Below, one piece after another: positions 1,548-59,680 of a stretch of DNA of 60,000 nt (within the stretch, counting starts at the first letter, position 1; the number at the start of each line of letters is the position of its first letter). The notes beneath the pieces were generated by a model. That model saw only the letters and a program-made list of their open reading frames with translations. It did not search any database and was not told where the DNA came from. The position numbers and the translations under genes are program-made. Location: positions 11,038,001 to 11,098,000 of the forward strand of contig NC_087245.1 of the NCBI RefSeq assembly GCF_037042905.1, in the 5' to 3' direction. This stretch comes from Lytechinus pictus. Taxonomy: Eukaryota.

Positions 1548-1731
1548 GCGCAGTGAGCTGCAGTCAAGACCCATTGGTTACTAATCAAGGTACCACCACA
1601 CAAGAACCCATTCATCCGAAGATTAGCCATCCATGGGAATTCCCCTAGATCAGCATTGACTCCTCCCACTATTCTAGACTGATAATCATCTACAGCAGGA
1701 CGGGTACCGCACATTGATTCTCCTGTGAGAT
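1548..1731 (-). CDS. SP7 exon 1 (divergent trypsin-like domain; remainder outside window)
   Basis: 184 nt, [69 protein letters not shown] donor. Confidence 0.9.
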
Positions 1732-58700: not shown

Positions 58701-59680
58701 ACGTCAATCCAAAATTCCCCCTAATCTCCTTTTTCTATCTTGCTTTGTATAGTCTTGTTAGCAGTATAATAAATGCTTATGATTTTAAGGTATGCTAGTA
58801 ACATTATGAAACATTTCTTGTCTTTATTTATACTGTCAAAATGCATCACGATGACATCTTTCTTAGTAACGCTCCTCCTTTTTTAACTTCTCCTTTTTAT
58901 ACATCGATTGATTTTTTTTTATACCTACCTTCTCTCTATTTTTCATTTTTATTGATTGTTCCGATTTAAAATGTTCAATATGTGTGACTATGGCATATAC
59001 CTCAATTAATTCAAAGAGAATACTTTATTTTCCATTTTTGTCAAAACTTTATTTACATTGACCTAAAGGATTTACGCAAATCTGGTCTACCGTACTTATA
59101 CTTGACTTTCTCAGTTTCAATATATTATAAAAGTGTTGGTAAATGTCCTATTTATACCAGTTTACTAAAAGAAATAAATTTATATATCATATCCCATGAG
59201 TAAACTATATAAAATGGCATAATCACAATGAAAACCTATTTGTAATGAAGAATGTACGTTTGTTTCACACCCCACCCCCCTTTCACAGAAAATGTTTAAC
59301 CTGTGATCGACACCGTGCATTTCCATTGCAGCTATTGATTATTGGAAACATTTAGCTACGCCCTTCGCCCGTTATAAATCATGAATCACATCAGAAAACC
59401 GTTTCTTCCCAAAGGAACAAATTGCTGCGACAATGATGAAGGCTAAGGAGGCCAGGAGCAGTGGCTAATAAAATGTATTTTCTTCTCTCCATTGTAATCA
59501 AGAACCGACAACCTTACCCTCAAAACCCATGGTATCCATGATCCAGTCAGTGTACTGTGAAATCCTGGCATAAACTCCTGGGTAATTTGGCTCAGCACAT
59601 CCGATCCCCCAACTCGTAGATCCTACCAGATGCCAACGACCATCAGAACCCTCACAAGTTAACGGTCCTCCACTATCGCC
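1548..59680 (-). CDS. Partial giant multi-exon mosaic serine protease polyprotein (repeated LDLa / Frizzled-CRD / trypsin-like S1 / CUB modules); 57 exons, ~4,048 aa in window, open at both ends
   Basis: All exons mapped by hand have AG/GT boundaries and compatible phases. Summed length is 12,146 nt = 4,048 codons + 2 nt, starting in phase 0 at 59680 and ending in phase 2 at 1548. No in-frame stop seen. Each protease last exon ends in a phase-1 donor (..GYE-G|GT or ..GFE-G|GT), not a stop codon. Confidence 0.85.
1831..1860 (-). CDS. 30-nt micro-exon ([10 protein letters not shown]) unique to the last unit
   Basis: caacag| ... G|GTAAGC, phase 1-1; resembles the DLTNEATCG start of the other protease exon-1 copies. 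Confidence 0.65.
2002..2355 (-). CDS. Frizzled CRD exon
   Basis: 354 nt, 10 Cys, phase 1-1. Confidence 0.88.
2579..2692 (-). CDS. LDLa exon (post-CUB type)
   Basis: 114 nt, [34 protein letters not shown], phase 1-1. Confidence 0.85.
3334..4938 (-). CDS. Three CUB exons (4558-4938, 3907-4278, 3334-3693)
   Basis: 381/372/360 nt, phase 1-1, CUB motifs. Confidence 0.9.
5531..5700 (+). mobile_element. Decayed RTE-clade LINE fragment (copies at ~25774-25945 and ~50559-50730)
   Basis: Translation [30 protein letters not shown](R/L)RWISHAHCM...PKDF resembles the RTE post-RT signature ISWxDxxxNxxxLxxAxxPS...RQRRLRWxGH...PK. Confidence 0.65.
6933..6956 (-). CDS. 24-nt linker micro-exon (EPSIPDNE)
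   Basis: Pyrimidine tract + catcag|, donor G|GTAAGC, phase 1-1. Confidence 0.7.
7618..11580 (-). CDS. SP6: complete trypsin-like domain, type A (exons 11397-11580, 8811-9088, 8406-8551, 7618-7780)
   Basis: Intact triad, R|IVGG, Asp189; canonical splice sites. Confidence 0.92.
11719..12072 (-). CDS. Frizzled CRD exon
   Basis: 354 nt, 10 Cys, phase 1-1. Confidence 0.88.
12307..12919 (-). CDS. Two LDLa exons (12806-12919, 12307-12420)
   Basis: 114 nt each, 6 Cys, phase 1-1. Confidence 0.9.
14185..16343 (-). CDS. SP5: complete trypsin-like domain, A/B chimera (exons 16160-16343, 15393-15670, 15017-15162, 14185-14347)
   Basis: Type-A exon 1 ([17 protein letters not shown]) followed by type-B exons 2-4; intact triad. 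Confidence 0.92.
16484..16837 (-). CDS. Frizzled CRD exon
   Basis: 354 nt, 10 Cys, phase 1-1. Confidence 0.88.
17072..17685 (-). CDS. Two LDLa exons (17572-17685, 17072-17185)
   Basis: 114 nt each, 6 Cys, phase 1-1. Confidence 0.9.
18946..21100 (-). CDS. SP4: complete trypsin-like domain, type B (exons 20917-21100, 20151-20428, 19777-19922, 18946-19108)
   Basis: [10 protein letters not shown], intact triad, canonical splice sites. Confidence 0.92.
21236..21589 (-). CDS. Frizzled CRD exon
   Basis: 354 nt, 10 Cys, phase 1-1. Confidence 0.88.
21813..21926 (-). CDS. LDLa exon (post-CUB type)
   Basis: 114 nt, 6 Cys, AAG acceptor, |GTAAGT donor. Confidence 0.85.
21979..22425. mobile_element. 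TA-flanked MITE (~450 bp), TIR CCGTGTTTACACTTAATCGGCA
   Basis: Perfect 22-bp TIRs with TA on both sides and internal palindromes. Absent from the homologous intron 2693-3333. Confidence 0.82.
22428..23090. mobile_element. Hairpin-ended repeat family member (same family as 216-1357), left part deleted
   Basis: ATATTGGATGGCT at 22948-22960 pairs with AGCCATCCAATAT at 23069-23081. Homologous to 47301-47933. Confidence 0.55.
23348..25170 (-). CDS. Three CUB exons (24790-25170, 24138-24509, 23348-23707)
   Basis: 381/372/360 nt, phase 1-1, CUB motifs. Confidence 0.9.
27148..27171 (-). CDS. 24-nt linker micro-exon (ETSIPDNE)
   Basis: catcag| ... G|GTAAGC, phase 1-1; homologous to 6933-6956 and 52213-52236. 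Confidence 0.68.
27255..28208 (-). mobile_element. Helentron-associated / DINE-1-like (HINE) non-autonomous element
   Basis: Absent from the homologous introns (near 7038 and 52318). Inserted in an A/T run with no TSD. 13-bp subterminal IR GTCTCACCTGCAT at 27276-27288 and 28196-28208, plus a partial IR at 28183-28189. Contains a (GCC)n microsatellite and internal ~162-190-bp tandem repeats. Confidence 0.75.
28883..29314 (+). repeat. Left arm tandem array (15-bp unit ~GACAATTGCTCCGCC, with interspersed 21-bp variants)
   Basis: Directly visible periodic repeat. Confidence 0.95.
32016..32104. repeat. Imperfect (ATC/ATT)n microsatellite, followed by a (GA)n tract at ~32160-32180
   Basis: Directly visible. 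Confidence 0.8.
33826..34370 (-). repeat. Right arm tandem array, inverted copy of the left arm
   Basis: GGCGGAGCAATTGTC units; variant order mirrors the left arm. Confidence 0.95.
34379..36930 (-). pseudogene. LINE ORF2 remnant (EN-RT), 5'-truncated, with an in-frame TAA at 35371-35373
   Basis: ORFs 35371..36930 and 34042..35358 share one frame and are separated by a single stop. The C-terminus ([30 protein letters not shown]) resumes at 28782-28874 beyond the foldback insertion. Confidence 0.88.
37301..40859 (-). CDS. SP3: complete trypsin-like domain, type A (exons 40676-40859, 38464-38741, 38092-38237, 37301-37463)
   Basis: Intact triad and activation site; canonical splice sites. Confidence 0.92.
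40998..41351 (-). CDS. Frizzled CRD exon
   Basis: 354 nt, 10 Cys, phase 1-1. Confidence 0.88.
41586..42199 (-). CDS. Two LDLa exons (42086-42199, 41586-41699)
   Basis: 114 nt each, 6 Cys, SDE motif, phase 1-1. Confidence 0.9.
43467..45622 (-). CDS. SP2: complete trypsin-like domain, type B (exons 45439-45622, 44673-44950, 44298-44443, 43467-43629)
   Basis: [26 protein letters not shown]. Same 184/278/146/163 exon pattern. Confidence 0.92.
45758..46111 (-). CDS. Frizzled CRD exon
   Basis: 354 nt, 10 Cys, tag| acceptor and |GTAAGT donor. Confidence 0.88.
46335..46448 (-). CDS. LDLa exon (post-CUB type)
   Basis: 114 nt, phase 1-1, [37 protein letters not shown] acceptor. Confidence 0.85.
46535..47933. 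mobile_element. Hairpin-ended repeat family member hosting the TA-flanked MITE
   Basis: 46540-46680 matches the reverse complement of ~1210-1350. The distal hairpin arm is missing near 47933. Confidence 0.55.
46852..47298. mobile_element. TA-flanked MITE, duplicate of 21979-22425
   Basis: Same TIRs and interior; carried by the segmental duplication. Confidence 0.82.
48139..49966 (-). CDS. Three CUB-domain exons (49586-49966, 48935-49306, 48139-48498)
   Basis: 381/372/360-nt phase 1-1 exons with SPN(Y/F)PxxYxN...W...FxLE...D...[13 protein letters not shown]...GF motifs. Confidence 0.9.
51783..52027. mobile_element. Small hAT-like MITE (TIR CATwGGCGGCrGAAGC)
   Basis: Absent at the homologous sites (~6750, ~27000). 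16-bp imperfect TIRs; degenerate 8-bp TSD (GGATACCC / GCAAACCT versus empty-site GCATACCC). Confidence 0.7.
52213..52236 (-). CDS. 24-nt linker micro-exon (EPSIPDNE)
   Basis: Long pyrimidine tract ending catcag|, donor G|GTAAGC, phase 1-1. Present in all three CUB-containing units. Confidence 0.7.
52896..56870 (-). CDS. SP1: complete trypsin-like S1 domain, type A (exons 56687-56870, 54092-54369, 53686-53831, 52896-53058)
   Basis: TCG...[38 protein letters not shown]. Exon sizes 184/278/146/163 with phases 1-2-1-0-1. Confidence 0.92.
57011..57364 (-). CDS. Frizzled cysteine-rich domain exon
   Basis: 354-nt phase 1-1 exon with 10 Cys in FZ spacing: YxxTYFPN ... [14 protein letters not shown] ... 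[14 protein letters not shown] ... WPIDC. Confidence 0.88.
57599..58429 (-). CDS. Two LDL-receptor class A repeats (exons 58316-58429, 57599-57712)
   Basis: Each exon is 114 nt, phase 1-1, with 6 Cys and a DCxDxSDE Ca-binding motif (e.g. [34 protein letters not shown]). Confidence 0.9.
59518..59680 (-). CDS. SP0: last exon (catalytic Ser) of a trypsin-like domain, type B
   Basis: 163-nt exon [54 protein letters not shown]; cag| acceptor, G|GTAAGG donor. The rest of the domain lies beyond the window. Confidence 0.9.

Follow-up and report, generated by a model that had tools for sequence, protein, structure and literature searches.

Protease units in the window

The window, a stretch of 60,000 nucleotides from Lytechinus pictus, carries on its minus strand a series of trypsin-like (S1) protease domains interleaved with CUB, LDLa and frizzled-type (Fz) modules. 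Our exon model was built from tblastn matches over the locus and accounts for 106 of the 108 matches, the two exceptions being a fragment of S1 exon 2 at +87.5 kb and, at 25.3 kb, the upstream one of the two halves into which a CUB1 match is split. Within the window the model comprises 56 exons (12,116 nt, 4,038 amino acids) that contain no stop codon and are open at both ends; if three 24-nt micro-exons are left out, the chain is 53 exons and 4,014 amino acids long. The original prediction had described 57 exons and about 4,048 amino acids, of which the stop-free frame and the two open ends are borne out and the extra ~30 nt was not found.

Read along the minus strand, the window begins with exon 4 of the unit 7 protease (59518..59680), which encodes GDSGGP and ends at a phase-1 donor; the remainder of this domain lies past the right window edge. 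The stem of unit 8 (57011..58429) follows, with phase 1-1 exons for two LDLa modules (58316-58429, 57599-57712) and one Fz module (57011-57364) that are placed by the exon model and by Pfam on paralogous copies. Its S1 domain is complete (52896..56870; exons 56687-56870, 54092-54369, 53686-53831 and 52896-53058) and has the R-IVGG site, His, Asp, Ser, Asp189 and 10 Cys. A phase 1-1 micro-exon of 24 nt (52213..52236) encodes the linker ..PSIPDNE.. ahead of unit 9, where Pfam and the exon model identify three CUB modules (48139..49966; CUB1 49586-49966, CUB2 48935-49306, CUB3 48139-48498), then LDLa (46335-46448) and Fz (45758-46111; together 45758..46448), and finally a complete S1 domain (43467..45622; exons 45439-45622, 44673-44950, 44298-44443 and 43467-43629) that also passed a residue check. 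Unit 10 has an LDLa-LDLa-Fz stem according to Pfam and the exon model (40998..42199; 42086-42199, 41586-41699 and 40998-41351) and a complete S1 domain by exon model and residue check (37301..40859; exons 40676-40859, 38464-38741, 38092-38237 and 37301-37463). The next intron copy alone contains an insertion of about 8.5 kb (28435..36942), which contains a LINE-like element and low-complexity repeats. The endonuclease and reverse transcriptase ORFs of this element (34042-36960) are broken by one in-frame stop and have the orientation of the gene.

Beyond a second micro-exon copy (24 nt, ..TSIPDNE.., 27148..27171), the exon model is joined by the mapping of a RefSeq protein, and every complete S1 domain was again checked residue by residue. 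Unit 11 consists of three CUB modules (23348..25170; CUB1 24790-25170, CUB2 24138-24509, CUB3 23348-23707), LDLa and Fz (21236..21926; 21813-21926 and 21236-21589) and a complete S1 domain (18946..21100; exons 20917-21100, 20151-20428, 19777-19922 and 18946-19108). The stem of unit 12 is LDLa-LDLa-Fz (16484..17685; 17572-17685, 17072-17185 and 16484-16837) and its S1 domain is complete (14185..16343; exons 16160-16343, 15393-15670, 15017-15162 and 14185-14347). Unit 13 has a stem of the same layout, LDLa-LDLa-Fz (11719..12919; 12806-12919, 12307-12420 and 11719-12072), and a complete S1 domain (7618..11580; exons 11397-11580, 8811-9088, 8406-8551 and 7618-7780). A third 24-nt micro-exon (6933..6956), the paralogue of that at 52213..52236, belongs to RefSeq isoform X2, while X1 skips it. 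Unit 14, the last of the gene, has three CUB modules (3334..4938; CUB1 4558-4938, CUB2 3907-4278, CUB3 3334-3693), LDLa and Fz (2002..2692; 2579-2692 and 2002-2355) and S1 exon 1 (1548..1731) in the window, with S1 exons 2-4 to the left of it, at -2190 to -3948.

Six complete S1 domains are therefore present together with two partial ones (exon 4 of one, exon 1 of another), all with intact triads, in agreement with the at least eight domains originally predicted. The chain contains seven R-[IV]VGG, seven TAAHC, six NDIAL, seven GDSGGP and six DSCQGDSGGP motifs, counts that are consistent with six complete domains plus a lone exon 4 and a lone exon 1. All 13 ORF translations tested with Pfam gave the expected families (3 CUB, 2 Fz, 4 Trypsin pieces, 2 Ldl_recept_a and 2 LINE endonuclease or reverse transcriptase pieces).

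Each module exon in the locus is phase 1-1, and as a result both the window chain and the whole-locus chain (110 exons, 8,180 amino acids) are open by construction. The single reading frame that had been emphasized is real, yet it follows from this symmetry and proves little by itself about a single transcript.

Extent of the array, duplication and selection

The array consists of 14 intact protease units over about 146 kb, eight of which touch the window. The exons are open in every one of the 14 units, and each unit has the R-IVGG site, the His, Asp and Ser of the triad, Asp189, and 10 Cys counted over pro-peptide and domain together. Splice sites score poorly in some of the older exons, for example the S1 exon 4 acceptors of units 3 and 4 (-6.2 and -7.3).

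Pairwise identity between units ranges from 72 to 100%, with the older units at 72-86% and the recent copies at 96-99%, introns included, and the duplications have nested periods of about 4.8, 20 and 24.5 kb. Across eight pairs of duplicated segments, exons differ at 142 of 10,198 positions (1.39%, 0 gap columns) and introns at 726 of 26,108 (2.78%, 271 gap columns). Of 12 pairs of whole units, three were dropped for unequal length and the other nine give dN/dS values of 0.14-0.30; dN/dS of the S1 domain alone is 0-0.34 in 23 of 25 pairs, with two dropped. Because dN/dS is this low and exons have diverged half as much as introns (1.4% versus 2.8%), we conclude that the gene copies are under purifying selection.

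Ends, junctions and transcription units

The array is flanked by a single 5' end that encodes cytoplasmic, transmembrane (TM), SEA and mucin-like segments (+139 to +127 kb) and, on the other side, by a single terminal exon at -6.6 kb. The N-terminal exons of the Strongylocentrotus purpuratus orthologue LOC578975 (3,304 amino acids; TM-SEA and four proteases, SEA at 184-252) have one match each in 260 kb, at +139.3, +136.5, +134.4 and +132.7 kb. The first is a cytoplasmic exon outside the window; the second encodes a 24-residue hydrophobic helix that aligns with residues 111-155 of the orthologue; and the last bears the SEA motif GSIIV. In Pfam the SEA exon of L. pictus, taken by itself, reaches 14.7 bits, under the cut-off of 26.4, and the SEA domain of the orthologue 29.4 bits. 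A Thr-rich exon lies at +127.6 kb. At the other end, the best candidate for a terminal exon, at about -6574, has an acceptor score of 8.3 followed by AA-TAA and yields the RefSeq C-terminus ..GYEE. Extension beyond both window edges, which the original prediction had recommended, thus supplied a TM helix and a candidate stop, and the single TM/SEA 5' end and single terminal exon favor its view of a polyprotease gene over separate genes.

The junctions between units point the same way. Every S1 last exon of the locus, 14 in all and 7 of them in the window, keeps a phase-1 GT at the same place, as had been claimed, though the read-through tails differ, and these donors persist in old copies that can no longer be aligned downstream of them. 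At every inter-unit junction the phases of donor and acceptor fit together; the predicted joins 59518->58429 and 14185->12919 both agree with the exon model, the latter also with the exactly mapped RefSeq protein. No signal-peptide-like first exon was found in any of the 14 inter-unit gaps scanned, again as predicted, and apart from two chance ORFs within the LINE the sole phase 1-1 exon in these gaps is the micro-exon. The micro-exon, also noted in the original prediction, is real and conserved: its peptide lies between protease 3 and CUB1 in the S. purpuratus orthologue.

Taken together, these observations make it probable, in our judgement, that the window is the interior of one gene, a type II transmembrane SEA polyserase orthologous to LOC578975 that has grown through recent tandem duplications inside the gene. 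RefSeq does not represent the array as a single gene. LOC135153396 (XP_063951984.1; 2,434 amino acids, four proteases) maps letter for letter from window position 25063 to -3947 in 32 segments and covers the last four units without a membrane anchor. It spans three protease-to-next-unit junctions, those that had been predicted, and holds 4 Trypsin, 6 CUB and 4 Fz matches; isoform X2 (of the pair XP_063951984.1/985.1) differs from X1 by the 24-nt micro-exon only.

This model raises an alternative that we regard as unlikely, though it survives best of those considered: the array may stem from one gene that is now at least two transcription units, with a TM-anchored 5' part that extends no further than the LINE-bearing intron, or stops at an intronic poly(A) site, and a separate 3' transcript for the four RefSeq proteases, so that the eight domains in the window would never share one protein. 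The RefSeq coding sequence does begin directly after the 10.1-kb intron with the sense LINE, searches among proteins of 222-4,260 amino acids revealed no further L. pictus model for the 10 units upstream, and stops and poly(A)-like motifs follow each S1 last exon if it is left unspliced. However, the start is an internal Met within CUB1, which looks like a truncated model, and the 3' protein would lack a signal peptide or TM helix even though every domain is disulphide-rich and extracellular. Purifying selection is also evident on both sides of the LINE (dN/dS of 0.30 for unit 9 versus 11 and 0.14 for unit 10 versus 13), and support from short-read junctions would be ambiguous among near-identical copies. 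The RefSeq model is probably truncated, and the upstream 10 units may be unannotated or annotated outside the 222-4,260 amino acid range. Protein searches found no transcript-derived protein for the multi-domain chain.

It is rather improbable that divergent haplotypes or mis-joined repeats were assembled in tandem and that the true number of units is nearer the four of S. purpuratus. The 96-99% identity of the recent copies, introns included, is within the range of sea urchin heterozygosity. Against this, the 260 kb contain no N, the periods are nested, insertions including the 8.5-kb LINE block are copy-specific, the seven recent copies exceed what two haplotypes give, and the older units show a long-standing array. 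In addition, other contigs have no copies: a search of the whole assembly with one unit gave 49 DNA matches, every one within the array on one contig. The copy number of the array rests on a single assembly.

Unspliced S1 last exons all run into a stop within 1-24 codons, with AATAAA or ATTAAA motifs 200-1,000 bp downstream, and shorter isoforms that end after individual protease domains are therefore possible. The original prediction had reasoned that such stops, combined with separate 5' exons, would indicate a cluster of tandem genes; the stops exist, and no signal-peptide-like first exon was found in any of the 14 gaps. Despite these stops, and although S1 gene clusters are common and sometimes fused by predictors (a 'LOW QUALITY PROTEIN: Kallikrein-5' model carries 10 S1 domains), we consider it highly improbable that each unit or unit pair is its own gene, because the stops arise only on intron read-through, the TM and SEA exons are single-copy, the phase-1 donors are conserved even beside diverged flanks, the micro-exon connects protease to CUB1 in two species, and the orthologues of S. 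purpuratus and Diadema are modelled as single proteins of 3.3 kaa.

Proposed protein and its relatives

If the window is indeed the interior of one polyserase gene, the ancestral echinoid gene would have encoded an N-terminal part made up of cytoplasmic tail, signal-anchor TM helix, SEA domain and Thr-rich stalk, and behind it four units of CUB(s)-LDLa-Fz-S1. Nested tandem duplications of about 4.8, 20 and 24.5 kb would then have amplified its interior in this genome to 14 units. Since the modules are phase 1-1 and each protease last exon has a phase-1 donor, duplicated blocks stay in frame and would lengthen one and the same protein by further protease units, to a maximum of about 8,200 amino acids, not counting the N-terminal stem. 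Each unit would be a zymogen: it has an Arg-Ile-Val-Gly-Gly site for activation, a Cys in the pro-peptide that could tether it through a disulphide, a full triad and the trypsin-like Asp189. With activation sites at Arg and a specificity like that of trypsin, one domain could activate another by cleaving after Arg. The product might be a multivalent protease array that is retained on the cell surface or shed, with CUB, LDLa and Fz presumably acting as binding modules. We infer splicing of all units into one mRNA, and likewise activation, tethering and function, from this gene model. The fullest version, one mRNA with all 14 units for a membrane-anchored protein of about 8,600 amino acids whose 14 competent domains were amplified in frame within Lytechinus and selected, we put forward only tentatively.

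[quoted passage not shown] Outside the window, on exons that would share an mRNA with those inside it, a cytoplasmic tail precedes one signal-anchor TM helix, the N-terminal arrangement of TTSPs, which have no signal peptide that is cleaved off; CUB, Ldl_recept_a and Fz stem modules score above Pfam cut-offs; and S1 domains with triad, Arg-Ile-Val-Gly-Gly and pro-peptide Cys are present in 14 of 14 units. At least two S1 domains in the continuous ORF of one gene are given by the RefSeq protein with four Trypsin matches that maps exactly to the DNA.

Characterized polyserases have two or three S1 domains. Polyserase-1/TMPRSS9 is likewise a type II transmembrane protein, combining LDLa with tandem S1 domains on a single polypeptide in which every S1 domain has an activation site to itself (PMC1435904). 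It has three proteases with no SEA, CUB or Fz between them, unlike the CUB/LDLa/Fz stem per protease and the 4-14 units of the urchin gene. Matriptase, enteropeptidase and TMPRSS6 share a SEA-CUB-LDLa stem on a type II anchor, but have one protease domain and no Fz. Ovochymases are secreted, with a signal peptide and only CUB and S1 domains, two or three of them proteases, and an assignment to this group was rejected because the locus and its orthologue have the TM, SEA, Fz and LDLa segments that ovochymases lack. Corin, a TTSP, resembles the urchin gene in placing frizzled cysteine-rich domains and LDLa repeats ahead of the protease. Its single protease is accompanied by two Fz domains, LDLa repeats and a scavenger-receptor domain; CUB and SEA are absent. 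We rejected the corin subfamily on account of the several proteases, the CUB and SEA modules, and the lack of any SRCR match by Pfam at the urchin locus. The likeness to ovochymase/oviductin polyproteases, on which a work is cited in PMC1435904, is that a single translated chain alternates CUB modules with several S1 domains.

Database predictions show that the earlier description of the architecture as unrecognized was overstated. The RefSeq models of L. pictus and S. purpuratus and a Diadema antillarum protein (3,343 amino acids, SEA and four Trypsin stretches) have the same CUB-LDLa-Fz-S1 repeat grammar and belong to the same family, but hold four proteases where the L. pictus locus has 14 intact units; public echinoderm orthologues have 4-6 Pfam Trypsin stretches. 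Predicted proteins of gar and spadefoot toad and a predicted manta TMPRSS9 reach 7-14 S1 domains by profile count (gar, 4,066 amino acids, up to 14; toad, 3,388 amino acids, 11-12), with Pfam giving 14 for gar and 12 for toad. In contrast to the urchin locus, the gar and toad predictions consist of S1 domains in tandem that lack a stem: in Pfam neither CUB nor LDLa nor Fz gives a match at E<=1e-6. These many-S1 predictions are unverified, and some models of this kind are fused gene clusters. Novelty is moderate: this is a recently amplified form of a gene type already predicted in databases with 4-14 S1 domains. We found no paper on LOC135153396 or its orthologues, all of which are labelled 'uncharacterized protein'. 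The SEA-anchored polyserases form a family common to echinoderms that has so far gone unstudied.

Were the full array one protein, it would rank with the largest known proteases in size and with the foremost in valency, and its S1 count would be several times that of any characterized polyserase. It would also be a natural case in which the number of catalytic domains rose fast, from 4 to 14, through intragenic duplication compatible with exon phase, each copy intact and under selection. Because phase 1-1 cassettes can be skipped in frame, as the micro-exon is in the RefSeq isoforms, isoforms could vary in the number and type of protease units. Such a protein raises the questions of whether tandem zymogens activate one another in cis, what benefit valency brings at the cell surface, and which ligands frizzled-type domains recognize in a protease that does not belong to the corin family. 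By sequence, the closest solved structures include enteropeptidase 7wqx (E 1e-69), TMPRSS6 9nrc, ST14 and TMPRSS2, and a holothurian homologue is annotated 'Ovochymase-1'.

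Exon organisation and extent of the array

AT-rich animal DNA without N (GC 0.33-0.40) makes up the window, and its coding signal of interest lies on the minus strand throughout. Pfam searches with 13 translated open frames returned three CUB, two Fz and two Ldl_recept_a domains, Trypsin in four consecutive pieces, and a LINE-type endonuclease/reverse transcriptase in two. Comparison of the window with itself revealed segmental repeats at 85-99% nucleotide identity, introns included, with offsets of about 4.8, 20.2 and 24.5 kb. With exon boundaries set by eye and by a simple splice-site score, the exons encoding CUB, LDLa and Fz modules are all phase 1-1, and each S1 domain is built from four exons of phases 1/2, 2/1, 1/0 and 0/1. 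Protease exon 4 always ends in G before a phase-1 GTAAGG or GTGAGG donor, in agreement with the GT donor that the original prediction had placed after the last exon of each protease.

The resulting model joins 56 exons within the window (12,116 nt, 4,038 aa) with zero stops. It contains six complete S1 domains, exon 4 of a further domain and exon 1 of another, and among its motifs are seven activation sites, seven His, six Asp102 and seven Ser195. A stop-free frame with many proteases had been predicted from the sequence and is recovered here, and the two junctions offered as examples (59518->58429 and 14185->12919) are identical in our model. The predicted totals of 57 exons and ~4,048 aa were near ours, but the extra ~30 nt could not be located. 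Because all modules are phase 1-1, any chain of modules would be open, and so the long frame reflects the set of exons and is no evidence for one mRNA. One candidate exon upstream of CUB1 (GEHKVEQ...VK, followed by GTAAGT) was discarded when a check by hand revealed stops in its phase-1 reading.

For module mapping, 100 kb was fetched on each side of the window from the assembly (812 Mb, 368 contigs), where the window occupies positions 11038001-11098000 of contig C1. The array, confined to the minus strand, lies between about +126 kb and -3.9 kb in window coordinates, where negative values and those above 60000 denote the flanks. It holds 14 protease domains, 18 CUB, 18 LDLa and 14 Fz exons, arranged as 14 units that each consist of a stem and a four-exon protease (numbered 5' to 3'), and the other 130 kb of flank contains nothing related. 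An isolated fragment of protease exon 2, situated in unit 4 between the CUB1 and LDLa exons at about +87481 to +87612 (91% over 44 residues), is probably a pseudo-exon left by unequal duplication.

Probable joining of the units into one gene

A search of 1.84 billion representatives, run without a profile and with one Fz exon as query, had as its best match a 2,434-aa protein (94% identity, four Fz matches), XP_063951984.1, named 'uncharacterized protein LOC135153396 isoform X1 [Lytechinus pictus]'. This protein aligns letter for letter to window positions 25063 to -3947 in 32 segments, in the order CUB1(part)-CUB2-CUB3-LDLa-Fz-S1, two units of LDLa-LDLa-Fz-S1, and CUB1-3-LDLa-Fz-S1. Since it maps across the predicted junctions, and uses one of the two example junctions, an independent annotation already joins four proteases there. 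The RefSeq model starts at an internal Met within CUB1, directly 3' of a 10.1-kb intron, and leaves the array unjoined. Among database proteins of 222-4,260 aa, no other L. pictus protein model was found for the ten upstream units; P0008, P0010, P0013 and other short database proteins were rejected as transcripts, being genomic ORF calls that run into introns.

When XP_063951984.1 was used as a query against proteins of 1,338-4,260 aa, it matched S. purpuratus LOC578975 isoform X2 (P0161; 3,304 aa) at 83% identity. Pfam assigns to this orthologue 4 Trypsin, 10 CUB and 4 Fz domains and a SEA domain at residues 184-252, and blastp with the modules of the locus gives the order CUB-LDLa-Fz-S1, followed by three CUB1-CUB2-CUB3-LDLa-Fz-S1 units. 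Its N-terminus comprises a cytoplasmic tail, a hydrophobic helix, the SEA domain and a Thr/Pro-rich stretch.

Extension beyond the window edges provided TM/SEA exons on the 5' side and a candidate terminal exon on the 3' side. The N-terminal parts of P0161 match the L. pictus region once each, at +139.3, +136.5, +134.4 and +132.7 kb; the exon at +136.5 kb encodes 24 hydrophobic residues and that at +132.7 kb a SEA-type GSIIV motif. A further exon, rich in Thr, is located at +127.6 kb. On the 3' side, the best candidate acceptor within 20 kb that would yield the RefSeq C-terminus ..GYE-E and a stop is at -6574 (score 8.3), and the orthologues likewise end a few residues past the last protease. 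The last protease keeps its phase-1 donor because it is spliced to a one-codon terminal exon, which explains why the same donor is present on every duplicated protease exon.

The original prediction had also noted no start or signal-peptide exon between modules, and this holds for the entire array: in none of the 14 inter-unit gaps did we find an ATG-started, hydrophobic first exon ending in phase 1 (criteria: donor score ≥3, length ≥15 residues, ≥9 of 12 residues hydrophobic). All of the domains are extracellular and rich in disulphides, and a unit that lacks a signal sequence therefore cannot function by itself. Unspliced protease exons hit a stop within 1-24 codons and are followed by poly(A)-like motifs, and these two sequence features make shorter anchored isoforms plausible. 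They argue against one giant mRNA, as do the start of the RefSeq model next to the LINE-bearing intron and the search result for the ten upstream units. That one giant mRNA might place all 14 proteases on one protein is a reading we entertain tentatively, with the balance of probability somewhat against it.

Comparison of the gaps after each protease also exposed a small island, conserved between diverged copies. This island is a phase 1-1 exon of 24 nt, with a pyrimidine tract and AG acceptor on one side and a GTAAGC donor on the other. The locus has four copies, of which three fall within the window, and in an exon scan this micro-exon is the only phase 1-1 exon in the inter-unit gaps besides two chance open frames within a LINE. 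A homologous octapeptide occurs in the S. purpuratus orthologue between the third protease and the following CUB1, and LOC135153396 isoform X2 is 8 residues longer than X1 by inclusion of the copy at 6933-6956. An older S. purpuratus model of 368 aa, XP_011676148.1 (P0001), runs from protease to micro-exon to LDLa, but was dropped as junction evidence because it is pieced together from exact segments of several different P0161 units, probably reflecting repeats that were collapsed in an earlier assembly.

Integrity and duplication history of the copies

All 14 units retain open exons, R-IVGG, His57, Asp102, Ser195, Asp189 and ten cysteines, and identity between their protease domains ranges from 72 to 100%, with a median of 81%. 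Across eight duplicated segment pairs, which are non-independent, exons show 142 differences in 10,198 sites (1.39%) and no gap columns, versus 726 in 26,108 sites (2.78%) and 271 gap columns for introns. Whole-unit dN/dS is 0.14-0.30 in nine pairs, three more having been dropped for unequal length. For the S1 domain only (two pairs dropped), values are 0-0.28 for the 21 pairs among the seven recent copies, whereas units 3/4 give 0.10 and units 6/14 give 0.34. Together, the exon and intron divergence and the dN/dS values indicate that the copies have been kept as coding sequence since their origin, which, given that they have no starts of their own, argues for translation within a larger protein.

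The copy number of 14 is based on one assembly. All 49 assembly matches of one unit fall inside the array and none on other contigs, which speaks against stray haplotigs; tandem mis-assembly is a separate matter. Unit 12 (14185-17685) carries the LDLa-LDLa-Fz stem of the 'B' units, yet its protease and tail are of the 'A' type and are 100% identical to those of unit 7. Set against units 8, 10 and 13, this mixed unit shows that the breakpoints of the 4.8-kb duplication fall inside units.

A domain tree is poorly resolved, with 3 of 18 inner branches starred and long Diadema branches. The recent L. pictus copies group together, as do two S. purpuratus domains. The tree supports only the within-species grouping of recent copies, which fits either lineage-specific duplication or homogenisation.

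The 10.1-kb intron has gained an 8.5-kb insertion, just downstream of which the RefSeq gene model starts. The insertion carries a LINE-like element with endonuclease and RT (34042-36960, minus strand, inside 28435-36942) that lies sense to the host gene and consists of two ORF halves with one in-frame stop between them. This LINE is present in only one of the three window copies of the host intron; a fourth, diverged copy of the intron lies outside the window. Two low-complexity repeat blocks (28782-29315 and 33613-34426) also reside within the insertion, on the 3' side of the LINE ORFs and apparently inverted to each other; on either strand several of their frames are open, giving peptides such as SAEQL.. 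and ADICS... Another repeat element, of ~680 bp at 265-940, has at least 40 copies at 93-98% identity on many contigs, and because a stretch of ~80 bases (query 854-933) also matches the opposite strand at ~90%, it looks like a MITE-type transposon.

Relation to known polyserases and a possible mechanism

The polyserases that have been characterised carry two or three protease domains (PMC1435904, PMC11172050). In a survey with an S1 profile, 138 of 273 compared proteins have at least one near-full match and 17 have at least five; these include predictions from gar with 14 matches and from spadefoot toad with 11 and 8, and a kallikrein model flagged 'LOW QUALITY' with 10. Given the characterised proteins and these larger public predictions, the gene kind, a type II transmembrane (TTSP) polyserase, is already known, and the gene itself is in RefSeq in truncated form. 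The original interpretation is partly supported, in that the RefSeq model joins protease units, but multi-S1 predictions were already public and the open frame follows from the module phases.

Three points are new: each protease has its own Fz/LDLa/CUB stem, on a SEA anchor; the number of intact units has recently grown from 4 to 14; and the current RefSeq model is likely to be incomplete. In echinoderm relatives, Pfam recognises 4 (S. purpuratus, Diadema), 5 (Patiria) and 6 (Antedon) Trypsin stretches. Literature searches outside subscription journals, made with polyserase or TTSP plus sea urchin and with the gene and protein identifiers, found no paper on this echinoderm gene family.

The nearest solved structures by sequence are enteropeptidase, plasma kallikrein, TMPRSS6, factor XI, matriptase, hepsin and TMPRSS2. 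We envisage a signal-anchored, SEA-containing stem bearing a chain of zymogen units, each of which would combine CUB, LDLa and Fz as binding modules with a pro-peptide cysteine, an activation bond between Arg and Ile, and an S1 domain of the trypsin-like type. Because trypsin-like domains cleave after Arg, neighbouring domains could activate one another. Once cleaved, each domain would remain attached to its own stem by a disulphide and to the next unit by the peptide chain, yielding a multivalent membrane protease array unless the linkers or the SEA domain were cut and pieces shed. Shedding of pieces by cleavage is described for polyserase-1 (PMC1435904).

The CUB1 exon is 51-57% identical to the CUB of ~1,000-1,175-aa proteins with a secretin-family 7TM region in S. 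purpuratus, L. variegatus and L. pictus (P0002-P0004), and this CUB type is thus common to polyprotease and adhesion-GPCR-like genes. Giant predicted proteins of hemichordates and amphioxus (P0006, P0007, P0011) contain 8-15 Fz domains, and one of these Fz giants, of 4,406 aa, has 12 Fz and 17 LDLa domains alongside REJ, GPS and PLAT and a polycystin channel.
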